From the NCBI GenBank assembly GCA_951406725.2, contig OX597822.1, forward strand, positions 5,766,001 to 5,830,000: a stretch of DNA of 64,000 nt, read 5' to 3'. The notes beneath the pieces are model-generated. The model worked only from the letters and a program-made list of their open reading frames with translations, was not told the DNA's origin and made no database searches. The translations under genes and the position numbers were made by a program. This stretch comes from Octopus vulgaris (lineage: Eukaryota). This document shows, one piece after another, positions 3,540-56,130 of the stretch; the stretch's first letter is position 1; every line of letters starts with the position of its first letter.

Positions 3540-4180
3540 TATGATGGAATGAACAAAACAATAGAAAGTATTGAACAGACATTGATGAATTACAAAAAGC
3601 CAAAAACAGTTCAGATGCACCAAAAAACTCTATCTTTAATAACCAAACACAGCCCAAGAAACATGGAAATATTCAGCATTATCCATCAGAGCCAAGACTC
3701 AAGAATGAAAAAGTTGCTTGAATCAAAAAAAATATTAAATGTGAAAGACATTCAAAAGCCAAAAAGACCTACTTAGCAATGTGATACTACCTACAATGGA
3801 CTCAAATCCAGCAGTTAAAATGTGTGGCTGATCTAATTGAGGAACAACCTTATTGAGAACATAGCTTATACATTTAAATCGAGACAAGTTTTTACTGTAG
3901 AAAACCATTTTACTTCTTCAAAAATTTTATATGGGGAAGATTATATAGGACAAACTAAACTCACTTTAAGAATGAGGCTAACAATTCATTGTCAACAGAT
4001 ATGAAATATTAGGTCTAGACAAGTTCCACTAAGTGAACATCTGGATGCATGCAATGAAACTAGATCTCATAAATTTCTTGTCTTCTCATCTTATCAACAT
4101 GCAGACAGTACCATAGATCAAACAAGAATAAATAAGGAAAATTAGTTTGTTAGAAAATGCAAGCCATGACTGAATAGGTT
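3540..4180 (+). mobile_element. Decayed Penelope-like retroelement (post-RT linker and GIY-YIG endonuclease)
   Basis: From 3933: GEDYIGQTKLTLRMRLTIHCQQI*NIRSRQVPLSEHLDAC...TRINKEN*FVRKCKP*LN, the YIG-T / R-H / E / LN pattern of the PLE GIY-YIG domain. The upstream ORF 3549-3776 has LSLITKHSPRN, like the PLE linker. Contains in-frame stops. Confidence 0.75.
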
Positions 4181-5165
4181 ATACAAAACATCAGTAATAC
4201 ATGATTCACCTTTTCTTATGAATTAATTATTGTAGAAATATATGTATGTTTATTTGCACTTGTTCTTAAGAAAAACAAAATTCATGTAGCAGCTATCATC
4301 TACTTTATTTCTTCCACACCTCATTATCTTGCCCCACACCTTGTTAACAAAGAAGAGACATATTTTAATGAGAGTGAACTAGCACTAATTGATAACCTTA
4401 TTCTTTGACAAAATAATGAACAATAACTATCTGTAACACTTTTATCTCAACAATGATTATATTTTTAAAAATTTAAGTTTCAGACTTTATTACTTTTGAC
4501 ATAAAACGATAGAGAAAACACAGTAAATTAGACATCACTTATTCATATCTCTCTTTTCTAGCTCTCATATGACATATTCAAAGGGAAAAAAAACCAACTT
4601 TTATGTGATCTTCGTGTGTGATTGTCACATAAGCTTAATACGTAAATGTTGACCTGTCAATTTATGTGTCAATGGCCAACAGAGTGAGCCACAGTCTTTC
4701 TTTAGAAACAAACAGTTTTTATAACACCTGCCAGATAAATTCTTCACTCCTTAAGCTGATGTTTGTGATAATTGACTATAAAATTGTAAATATTGTCCCT
4801 CATCCTACTGGCAATGCTTTACCAATCCTTACACAATTGTCAACATCTTTTGTGGTAAGAATGTACCCTTCCGATTCTTATTAACCCCCAACTTATTCCT
4901 CTTGAAACGTTTTTGTGTTGCTATGTATCTATATTGTACCATGTATGTTTAGAAATATTTATTTTCATGTACAATGGTGATCATGTTGCTTGCTCTCCGA
5001 TGTTTTCTTGTATCCTATTTTTCAGAAAAAGCCCATAGGAACACAGTGTGACTTGATAATATGAAAAATCAATTGGAAAATTAATTTTGCATTACAGAAT
5101 TTTATGTTACAGCCAGAATACCAGAATATCAAGAATACATTGCTTCTCTAAATGAAGGATTTCTA

Positions 5166-41829: not shown

Positions 41830-42207
41830 GTGCAGGGGTGGCTGTGTGGTAAGAAGCTTGCTTCTTAAACACATGGTTCTGGGTTCAGTCCCACTGCATG
41901 GCATCTTGGGCAAGTATCTTGTACTATATCCTCAGGCCAATCAAAGCCTTGTGAGTGGATTTGGTAGATGAAAACTGAAAGAAGCCCATCGTGTATATAT
42001 GTGTGTATATTTGTGTGTGTGTGTGTGTTTGTTTGTCCCCCCAACTTTTACTTGACAACCGGTGTTGGTATGTCTACATTCCCATAGCTTAGCAGGTCGG
42101 CAAAAAAGGCTGATAAAATAAGTACAAGGTTCACAAAGACTAAATCTTGGAGTCAATTTGTTCGACTAAAGGCAGTGTTCCAGCAAATGACTGCAACAAG
42201 TAGAAGA

Positions 42208-53469: not shown

Positions 53470-53738
53470 ACATATAGGTGTGCTACAAGGGGCAAGATAA
53501 GTATGCAGTGAATTTTTGATACTATCATTGTATATACAGGTATTACAGTGTTTAAGAAATTTACTCTGCAGCCATATGACCTTCAGTTCAATTCCACTCT
53601 GTGGCATCTTGAGCAAGTGTCTTATTCTATGGCTCCAGGATGTATTCCTTGTGAGTCACTTTGCTGGATGAAAATTGTATAGAAATCCTGTCATCTATCT
53701 GTGTGTGTGTCTTTATACATACATACACACACACATAT

Positions 53739-54127
53739 ATAGTAATGTTTATATGCCAACATAACGTGTAGTCCTATAAAGGATGACTTTACTGTTGTTT
53801 TAGTCCCAGGAAAACATCTTTTCCAGATGGTTATTGACACACAGTTTGTGTCCGTATATAGCATTTGCAAGGGAGGTCCTCGCCCCCATCTCTAGACTTA
53901 CGTGATACTCACAGACCTAGGTTTCTGGATGTTATCCATCCTCAGTGTGAGGCAATCACCAGCTAGTGATGAAAGACATCTCTACTTGCTAATAGTACAC
54001 ATTCTTTAAGTGACGCACAATCACTGATCTCATATTGAGAAAAACAACATGTTTTAAATCTCTGAGTGAAAGAAATACAGTAACAGTACCGGATAGTAAT
54101 CTTTACATGCCAACATAACATGGGGAG

Positions 54128-54162
<35 letters not shown>

Positions 54163-54335
54163 CACATACACAACAGGCTTCTTTTAGTTTCCATCTACCA
54201 AAACCCCTCACAAGGCTTTGGTTAGCCCAAGGTTATAGTAAATAGGACTGCCACGTTATGTTGGCATATAAACATTACTATTTGATACTGTTTCTGTATT
54301 TCTCTTGCTCAGAGATTTAAAACATGTTGTTTTTC

Positions 54336-54336
<1 letters not shown>
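53739..54336 (-). mobile_element. 354-bp-monomer non-coding retroelement (retrozyme-like) with terminal redundancy and an inverted piece
   Basis: AGTAAT.TTTA.ATGCCAACATAAC at 53741 and 54095 (period 354). 54243-54336 is an inverted copy spanning the monomer junction. A SINE A fragment lies at 54125-54240. Carries a hammerhead. Confidence 0.75.
53908..53951 (-). ncRNA. Minimal type I hammerhead ribozyme
   Basis: Minus strand: CTCACA-CTGAGGA-TGGAT aac ATCCA-GAAA-CCTAG-GTC|TGTGAG. Perfect stem I (6 bp) and stem II (5 bp), palindromic stem III ACCTAGGT, GUC triplet. Confidence 0.9.
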
Positions 54337-54378
<42 letters not shown>

Positions 54379-54820: not shown

Positions 54821-56130
54821 CATCATCATCGTTTAACGTCCACTTTCCATGCTGGCAGGGGTTGGATGGTTTGACTGAGGGCTGGTGAGCCAGATGACTG
54901 CACCAGGCTCCAATCCAATTTGGCAGAGTTTCTACAGCTTGATGCCCTTCCTAACACCAACCACTCCGAGAGTGTAGTGGGTGCTTTTACATGCCACCTG
55001 CACGAGGGCCAGTCAGGTGGAACTGGCGATGACCTCACTCGAATGCTGTTTTATCATGTGTCACTGGCACAAGTGCCAGTAAGGCGATGCAGGTAACGAT
55101 CATGCTTGAATGGTGCTTATTACGTGCCACTGGCATGGGGGCCAGTCAGCAGCCCTGGCAACCATAATGCTTGGATGGTGCTCTTAATGTTTCACTAGCA
55201 GGGATGCCAGTCAGGCAGTGCTGTCATCGGCCACGTCTGTGAATATGTTTTCGATTTCACATGCCTCAACAGGTCTTCGCAAGGAGAGTTTAGTGTCCAA
55301 TAGGTGGGCTGGTTACACCACTGGAATAGGCCATGGGTTATGGTCTCACTTGGCTTGCCAGGTCTTCTCAGGCACAGCATATTTCCAAAGGTCTCGGTCA
55401 CTAGTCATTGCCTTGGTGAGGCCTAATGTTCGAAGGTCGTGCTTCACCACCTCATCCCAGGTCTTCCTGGGTCTACCTCTTCCACAGATTCTCTGAAGCG
55501 CTAGGGTGTGACACTTTTTCACATGGCTATCCTCATCCATTCTCACCACATGACCGTACCAGTGCAGTCATCTCTCTTGCACACCACATCTGAAGCTTCT
55601 TAGGTCCAACTTTTTCTCTCAAGGCACTTACACTCAGTCATGTATGCACACTGACATTACACATCCAGCAGAGCATACTGGCTTCATTCCTTGCAAGCTT
55701 ACACATGTCCTTGGCAGTCACAGCCCATGTTCCACTGCCATATAGCATGGCTGTTTGTACACTTGTGTCATACAGTTTACCTTTTATTCTGAGCGAGAAG
55801 CCCTTTGTCACCAGCAGAGGTAGGAGCTCTCTGAACTTTGCCCAGGCTATTCTTATTCTAGCAGCTACGCTTTCAGAGCATCCACCCCGACTACTGACTT
55901 GGTCACCTAGGTAATGGAAGCTGTCAACTATTTGTAGTTTTTCTCCCTGGAATGTGGCGGAAGTTGTTCTCTGCACATTTTCAGTGTTTATTGCACCTGA
56001 GCATCTGCCACATACAAAAACTATCTTCCCAGTTAGCCTTCCTTTGATTTTGCTGCACCTCTTATGTGTCCATAGCTTACACTGGGTACATCTTATAGAG
56101 TTTCTACCTACGCCTTTGCTACAGATTGAG
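54821..56130 (-). mobile_element. RTE LINE 3' ~1.3 kb with a PHD-like Cys/His insertion
   Basis: SICSKGVG..NSIRCTQCKLWTHKRCSKIKGRL..FVCGRC then VDSFHYLGD, AWAKFRELLP, LYGSGTW and GRGRPRKTWDEVVKHD, followed by 3' UTR and (GAT)n tail. Confidence 0.92.

Follow-up and report, generated by a model that had tools for sequence, protein, structure and literature searches.

A 5'-truncated, partly inverted non-LTR retrozyme insertion in the Octopus vulgaris genome and its probable mobilisation by a Penelope-like element

Anatomy of the insertion

The window analysed here is a 64,000-nt stretch of the Octopus vulgaris genome (assembly GCA_951406725.2, contig OX597822.1, positions 5,766,001 to 5,830,000), and it carries one copy of a dispersed repeat with a 354-nt unit that we call family A. 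Unit positions are numbered in the sense of the hammerhead ribozyme found within the unit, such that position 1 is window position 54092, position 354 is window position 53739, and predicted cleavage follows position 179. The main arm of the insertion (53739..54122, minus strand) is 384 nt or 1.09 units long. It comprises one full non-coding unit (53739..54092, minus strand), in which the longest stop-free run is 63 codons when the unit is circularised, preceded by the last 30 nt of another unit (54093..54122, minus strand), 27 of which are identical to 53739-53768. The arm is 5'-truncated at unit position 325, and its 3' end falls at unit position 354 (window 53739, minus strand), a fixed site in the family. 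The initial annotation of this DNA had the 354-nt period right, and the terminal redundancy of about 28 bp that it reported exists as a direct repeat of 30 bp, 354 nt apart, but this repeat marks a random point of 5' truncation and nothing more.

Head to head with the main arm stands an inverted arm (54242..54342, plus strand), which runs from unit position 316 to 354 and then from 1 to about 58-61, giving the locus a 92-nt inverted repeat. This piece is 88% identical to 54032-54122 and continues into sequence like that of 53768-53778. The continuation had been read in the initial annotation as passage through an end-to-start junction; the sequence does run on in this way, but 54122/53768 is no biological junction, as the 5' ends of the family are scattered. 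Only the inverted arm carries a tail (54282..54342, plus strand), which extends about 55-60 nt beyond the first fixed end and whose final few bases blend into an (AT)n run. Both 3' ends of the insertion lie in microsatellite, the left target being an (AC)n/(AT)n run that follows an older SINE-like copy (53717..53738) and the right target an (AT)n run (54339..54378). The locus is a single insertion, with a main arm reading 325-354-354 and an inverted arm reading 316-354-61, and this anatomy, which is that of a Penelope-like element (PLE) insertion, had been missed in the initial annotation.

The two 5' ends are separated by a 120-nt filler (54123..54242, minus strand), an internal piece of an abundant SINE-like repeat with a (TG)n run, cut on both sides. 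Fourteen further copies of this repeat are present in the window (e.g., at 41922, 52010 and 63579), and since these extend on both sides of the 120-nt piece, a later SINE insertion between the arms is unlikely. We infer that the filler was likely captured during reverse transcription, via template jumping. As the window copy holds one ribozyme only, it cannot itself release a monomer or make a circle. Elsewhere in the window, at 54987-55214, four copies of a 65-67 nt repeat lie within another interspersed element.

The hammerhead ribozyme

The type I hammerhead core (53908..53951, minus strand) has a helix I of 6 bp, a helix II of 5 bp and a helix III of 2 bp within an 8-nt palindrome, together with the core CUGAGGA/GAAA and a GUC site that places predicted cleavage 3' of 53914. 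No other site matched when both strands of the 64-kb window were scanned for a generic type I hammerhead. A distal 5-bp extension of helix I beyond an internal loop, in which 53955-53959 pairs with 53902-53906, widens the motif to 53902..53959 (minus strand); across 17 distinct rows of relatives, families B and C (see below) included, 92% of the cells are paired.

The same 44 nt had been annotated as a minimal hammerhead whose fold has no mismatches. The stems and the GUC stand, but the word "minimal" does not: in the accessible part of PMC4209133, it is reserved for forms without helix III or loop 3, with a long helix II of 7-8 bp and a short helix I, and the canonical metazoan type I layout is described as working as a dimer. 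With a helix I of 6 + 5 bp, a helix II of 4-5 bp and a helix III of 2 bp with a tetraloop, the window hammerhead has, by its predicted fold, the ordinary canonical layout of metazoan type I ribozymes and not the minimal one of Penelope elements. The absence of mismatches is true of the window copy but is partly luck for helix II: among 37 relatives, the A at its closing position faces C in 25 and U in 9, and the closing pair is unpaired in 13 of the 17 distinct rows. A mismatch at the base of helix II is likewise found in the axolotl retrozyme HHR_Amex2.

The hammerhead is not the minimum-energy fold of the 44-mer (-6.5 vs -11.8 kcal/mol; z -1.4), and the whole-unit folding signal is weak (z -2.0). 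Rfam returned no hammerhead match for the window copy, even at an E-value of 10 over 431 bases, and family C scores 32.2 bits on Hammerhead_1, just below the cut-off of 34, with a match at that score in every unit of the family C loci L231 and L234. Two pairs of helix I swap on both sides between families (9 A-U vs 8 U-A; 8 G-C vs 7 A-U), albeit through few independent events, and the helix III octamer, whose sequence is not the same in families A and C, is perfectly palindromic in each (duplex energies -11.4 and -10.7 kcal/mol). Judged by these paired changes, the ribozyme is conserved by compensation between families, across 37% divergence. Within family A, an unbiased set of 19 loci gives a core conservation of 0.961 vs 0.921, which is not significant (P 0.07); a larger difference (0.944 vs 0.886) was discounted, as some of its rows had been selected by the core pattern itself.

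Self-cleavage of the hammerheads of the window and its family is predicted, with the compensatory pairs and the palindrome as indirect evidence. Among 30 family A loci chosen without regard to the ribozyme, four have 5' ends at unit positions 180-183, one of them with microsatellite microhomology and two at inversion joints. In family C, 1 of 14 pattern matches proved a true end at the cleavage site, which is about chance level. Two ribozymes per locus are present in the family A loci L006 and L020.

An old dispersed family with two fixed 3' ends

The assembly searched spans 2.8 Gb in 227 contigs. With the 384-nt arm as query, 96 matches were obtained from the 40 scored of 1854 first-look candidates, near-full-length matches being 78-85% identical, and 74 distinct loci were found among the 90 fetched, yielding 112 pieces of 60 nt or more. 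A single-copy sequence, which would have undone the retrozyme reading of the initial annotation, is thereby excluded. The ribozyme pattern of family A has 35 exact matches in the genome and its reversed control none. Members of the family share a mean pairwise identity of 0.83, and at 91% of positions the window copy carries the commonest letter (about 9% divergence); together these values mark family A as old, and the window copy is an ordinary old fragment of it.

The 3' ends of family A are concentrated at two sites, with 51 of the 112 pieces ending at unit positions 349-354 (35 of them at exactly 354) and 28 at 40-62, while none of the 112 ends at 170-190 around the cleavage site. Queries that end at 354 favour pieces reaching 354, and hence a separate count was made on 30 loci picked solely by the ribozyme pattern; here, 14 of the 3' ends fall at 346-354, 8 at 41-62 and 8 elsewhere. 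The two 3' ends are thus fixed about 55 nt apart and the 5' ends are scattered round the unit. A pile of 5' ends at 106-125 has no common upstream sequence. Of the pieces ending at 349-354, 29 of 51 run into microsatellite by a pattern-based count. Two arms stand head to head at 28 of the 74 loci, with one arm of each end type in 13 of the 28 by our own count. More than one unit is present in 35 of the 112 pieces, the longest being 659 nt and none reaching two units.

Neither a rolling-circle reading frame in the unit nor an open frame with reverse transcriptase (RT) and GIY-YIG matches, either within the unit or adjoining family A loci, was found. Lacking the latter, the unit behaves as a passenger of PLEs and not as an autonomous PLE. 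The window element and its relatives are a new member of the known non-LTR retrozymes.

Younger relatives

Family B was reached via a diverged match, and its ribozyme pattern has 621 exact matches (control 0), which are mostly family C and also include family B. Copies of family B (L111-L140) are about 90% identical and share the ribozyme layout; at one locus, identity was 67% to family A and 78% to family C. In several copies of the B/C type, C replaces U at the second core position. The family C unit is 353 nt long, with a longest stop-free run of 66 codons, and is identical to the window unit in 227 of 362 columns (63%). Its copies are 97-100% identical (e.g., L231 at C1:180104500-180109000, L232 and L234); family A is old, family B of middle age and family C young.

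Fifty family C loci were fetched and 31 kept, after removal of 11 same-place repeats, L211 and 7 loci of older subfamilies with 90% identity or less, five of which show ends identical to those of family C. The omitted L211 is a 98% family C copy that ends at 194 in (AT)n, and it counts as a miss for the two-end pattern. Two of the 31 kept loci, L202 and L207, agree in structure and variants but face opposite ways at a distance of about 1 Mb, and are probably one insertion duplicated with its flanks.

The young family repeats the pattern of the old one. Of 51 pieces, 27 have 3' ends at 210-213, 19 at 255-261 and 5 elsewhere, and position 213 of family C aligns exactly with position 354 of family A at 63% identity. 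At head-to-head joints, one arm of each kind is present in 13 of 18 cases, and two alike in none. Nearly all ends run into (AT)n. Pieces exceeding one unit number 32 of 51, without any foreign body, and 14 of 51 hold two units or more, with arrays of up to 5.11 units per arm; as 12 of the last 20 loci had been chosen for several ribozymes, these multimer counts are enriched. The genome-wide family, and above all these multimers, supports both the animal retrozyme reading and the tandem or circular, more-than-unit template that the initial annotation had proposed.

Penelope-like elements as the candidate motor

According to the accessible text of PMC8557442, Penelope-like elements are typically truncated at the 5' end, may form partial tandems with one copy inverted, and have a tail of 30-40 bp on one side, a tail not seen in non-LTR TPRT. 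In vitro, a lizard PLE protein cuts both strands of AT-rich DNA and begins reverse transcription from two internal sites, which delimit the tail; hammerhead cleavage is dispensable in that system, where unprocessed RNA serves as the main substrate (PMC11167929). The octopus retrozymes show the same traits, namely 5' truncation, partial tandems, an inverted 5' arm, microsatellite targets, and two fixed 3' ends with a one-sided tail. As most copies continue through the ribozyme, priming does not take place at its cleaved end. We hold mobilisation by PLEs to be very probable in general, and a PLE protein likely moved all three families.

The genome contains many GIY-YIG frames. A young autonomous PLE family (L091-L096, L295-L324) has a 781-codon frame with RT and GIY-YIG matches, and its copies end in (AT)n at positions 747 or 781-787 of the copy L094. 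Of 30 loci, 15 continue into the body and 15 end at the tail, in a set whose query favoured tail-bearing copies; in 8 of these 15 tail-bearing copies, the opposite end carries an inverted arm that stops at 747. A separate frame of 479 codons, without a clear match to any Pfam family, precedes the 781-codon frame, and about 70 nt before the first 3' end lies a hammerhead-like motif whose core is non-canonical and whose helix III is palindromic. In a second young PLE family (L106:1821-4983, L238:1075-1294), an AC-rich 30-nt tail is present on one arm only. This second family also has a short hammerhead-like motif, and one of its copies occupies an (AT)n run in common with a family C insertion.

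The tail of family C can be aligned with that of the 781-codon family (score 28 over 37 columns; shuffle P 0.0015 and 0.0005), and this is the best place on the C unit, but the match is AT-rich, is one of six comparisons, and is tied with an internal pseudo-LTR (pLTR) site. On this tail similarity, the partner of family C is probably the 781-codon family. The tails of families A and B did not align with either PLE tail tested (P 0.3-0.97). No autonomous PLE homologous to family A was found among 79 PLE loci, a small part of the PLEs of the genome, and a profile of 37 family A copies run across these loci matched a single separate related insertion and nothing else. When 30 GIY-YIG loci, along with 20 longer stretches and 29 loci from a third PLE family, were searched for family A sequence, the sole result was a 24-nt match (E 0.05-0.1), which was taken as chance. 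At L128:888-1737, a family B copy is joined at its 5' end, without a gap, to a PLE RT fragment, and (AT)n flanks the whole on both sides; we did not count this single locus as support, given that template switching or a prior target could produce it.

Relation to known retrozymes and Penelope-like elements

Non-LTR retrozymes were defined by Cervera and de la Pena (2020; PMC7229834), in whose accessible text circular forms are shown for coral, mussel and axolotl, and PLEs are put forward as strong candidates for moving them. A PLE origin of retrozymes is argued from co-occurrence and Xenopus pLTR homology by Li, Clavereau and Pollet (2026; bioRxiv 10.64898/2026.07.22.740005), as far as the available text shows. 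In the accessible parts of these two sources, then, the PLE motor is linked to retrozymes via shared ribozymes, co-occurrence and pLTR homology, and a circular template is proposed; we found no insertion-site evidence there, and neither "tail" nor "octopus" appears as a word in the main text of the preprint as available. Our literature search found no cephalopod retrozyme or mapped retrozyme insertion ends among the sources within reach, subscription papers, supplements and repeat databases being mostly beyond it. In the octopus, the insertion scars bear the PLE-specific signature of two-site priming.

The octopus families resemble animal non-LTR retrozymes in having a non-coding unit within 150-450 nt, no LTR, a GC content below 50%, a single canonical type I hammerhead in each unit, forms ranging from monomer to multimer, dispersed copies and co-existing PLEs. 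Circular RNA and cleavage have been demonstrated for the published elements and are predicted for the octopus families; conversely, the insertion ends of the latter are mapped here, with a PLE two-site tail, inversions and (AT)n targeting. Unlike the Xenopus retrozyme families, family A shows no pLTR homology across the 79 PLE loci. The 2026 preprint (10.64898/2026.07.22.740005), in its accessible text, calls a retrozyme active when tandem copies hold at least two intact ribozymes; the window copy, with 1.09 units and one ribozyme, falls outside this definition, and the family C multimers, which were partly selected as such, fall within it.

With EN+ PLEs (Penelope/Poseidon, Neptune), as described in PMC11167929 and in the accessible parts of PMC8557442 and PMC4209133, the octopus elements share 5' truncation, partial tandems, an inverted 5' arm, a one-sided tail, microsatellite targets and a type I hammerhead upstream of the priming sites. 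They differ from them in having no ORF, a unit of only 354 nt, a canonical hammerhead and up to five full units per insertion. Their tail measures 42-47 nt in family C and about 55 nt (41-62), with less sharp ends, in family A, compared to the 30-40 bp given for PLEs in the text available. Non-autonomous Chlamys PLEs, MRC1 among them, differ in that their 3' end resembles that of the autonomous partner, and most Chlamys elements have no canonical hammerhead, whereas the octopus retrozymes have one per unit (both per the accessible part of PMC8557442).

Template and mechanism of insertion

We consider it probable that the window locus is a 5'-truncated, partly inverted non-LTR retrozyme insertion placed into (AT)n by a PLE RT/GIY-YIG protein acting in trans. 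Tandem source copies would be transcribed, their hammerheads would pair via the helix III palindromes and cut out monomers, and a host ligase would close these into circles. The PLE protein would then nick both strands of AT-rich DNA, with cDNA primed at two internal RNA sites that lie about 175 and 220-235 nt beyond the point of cleavage, each serving one arm. Reverse transcriptase would circle the template for 0.2-5 units and stop randomly, and the two cDNAs would join at their growing ends, at the window locus through the captured SINE piece.

Within this scheme, we favour a circular template with moderate confidence. The variants of family C bear on this point. Among variants common to several loci, 36 of 41 are present in all covering units (positions covered twice or more). 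Among private variants, 10, spread over 8 loci, are present in all units of their insertion on both arms, with counts that reach 5 of 5 and 6 of 6 units; 5 (3 loci) are present in some units only, and 48 in one unit. That a dispersed insertion of five units carries a new variant in each of them fits copying round a monomer circle. In L232, on the other hand, one variant is present in four of six units, in the same order from the 3' end on both arms, and this order calls for a mixed multimer template or later conversion.

In the strongest alternative, the insertion is driven by PLEs but copied from an uncleaved linear multimer of a tandem source, with the hammerhead a passenger or serving another step and no circle formed. 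It would account for the mixed unit variants of L232, L212 and L227, and unprocessed RNA serves as the main substrate in PMC11167929. The ribozyme is read through in most copies, which uncleaved linear RNA explains as well as a circle does, and the family A loci L006 and L016 each share an identical core or helix III defect across both units or arms. However, variants fixed in all five or six units of L231 and L232 need a one-unit bottleneck, which a linear template could supply only by repeated seamless template switches or conversion at each source, and the compensatory change that keeps the ribozyme intact across families also speaks against this alternative. Overall, we regard the linear template as rather unlikely.

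The RNA data consist of assembled contigs, which cannot reveal circles, strand or ends. No RNA dataset was listed as containing the window copy, relatives of family A occur at low depth in the contigs of presumed RNA runs, and pieces of the family C type, with 0-1 differences over 134-158 nt, occur in all three presumed RNA runs. The unit-to-unit joint was also found in a fourth, probably DNA, run and is uninformative on circles. Moreover, ligation at the cleavage site rebuilds the genomic tandem sequence, so reads across a GUC junction, which the initial annotation had suggested seeking, cannot discriminate.

The copies could also be solo pLTRs, i.e., 3' remnants of an autonomous PLE that lost its body by 5' truncation. 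The insertion anatomy would be the same, type I hammerheads are present in PLE pLTRs (in the part of PMC4209133 available), and the accessible text of the 2026 preprint (10.64898/2026.07.22.740005) derives retrozymes from pLTRs. Against this, the unit closes on itself, and pieces of more than one unit are free of foreign body in both families A and C. The masked flanks of 30 family A loci have nothing in common beside the element except for one pair of neighbouring repeats, PLE coding sequence was not found beside family A loci, and the ribozyme is canonical rather than of the minimal pLTR type. For the copies examined, this reading is largely refuted, and we consider it very improbable. More improbable still is a minisatellite spread at the DNA level, through unequal crossing over or circles of DNA, or else a SINE-like sequence carried by an ordinary LINE. 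The units are tandem and LINE insertions likewise show 5' truncation and inversion, but the copies are dispersed as single insertions, have two fixed 3' ends distributed one to each arm, lack a poly(A) or repeat tail of their own, and have (AT)n targets common to the PLEs of the same genome.

Returning to PLE-driven insertion, we tentatively propose that viroid-sized RNA circles exploit a PLE resident in the same genome through mimicry of just its 40-nt signal for two-site priming, rather than by descent from its pLTR, and are copied for multiple rounds onto both nicked strands. If so, the enzyme would roll round a monomer circle for five or more rounds, the genome would hold a fossil record (families A, B and C) alongside a live matched pair (family C and the 781-codon PLE), and rolling-circle retrotransposition of a ribozyme circle could be reconstituted from that pair. 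The value of the system lies in the young family C and its young candidate PLE, which give exact predicted RT start sites, and not in the window copy. A copy of the 781-codon PLE ends just left of the window (C9, about 5765500), and inside it, at 3558-4181 (plus strand), lies a decayed PLE endonuclease-region fragment that is 31% identical to the 781-codon protein.
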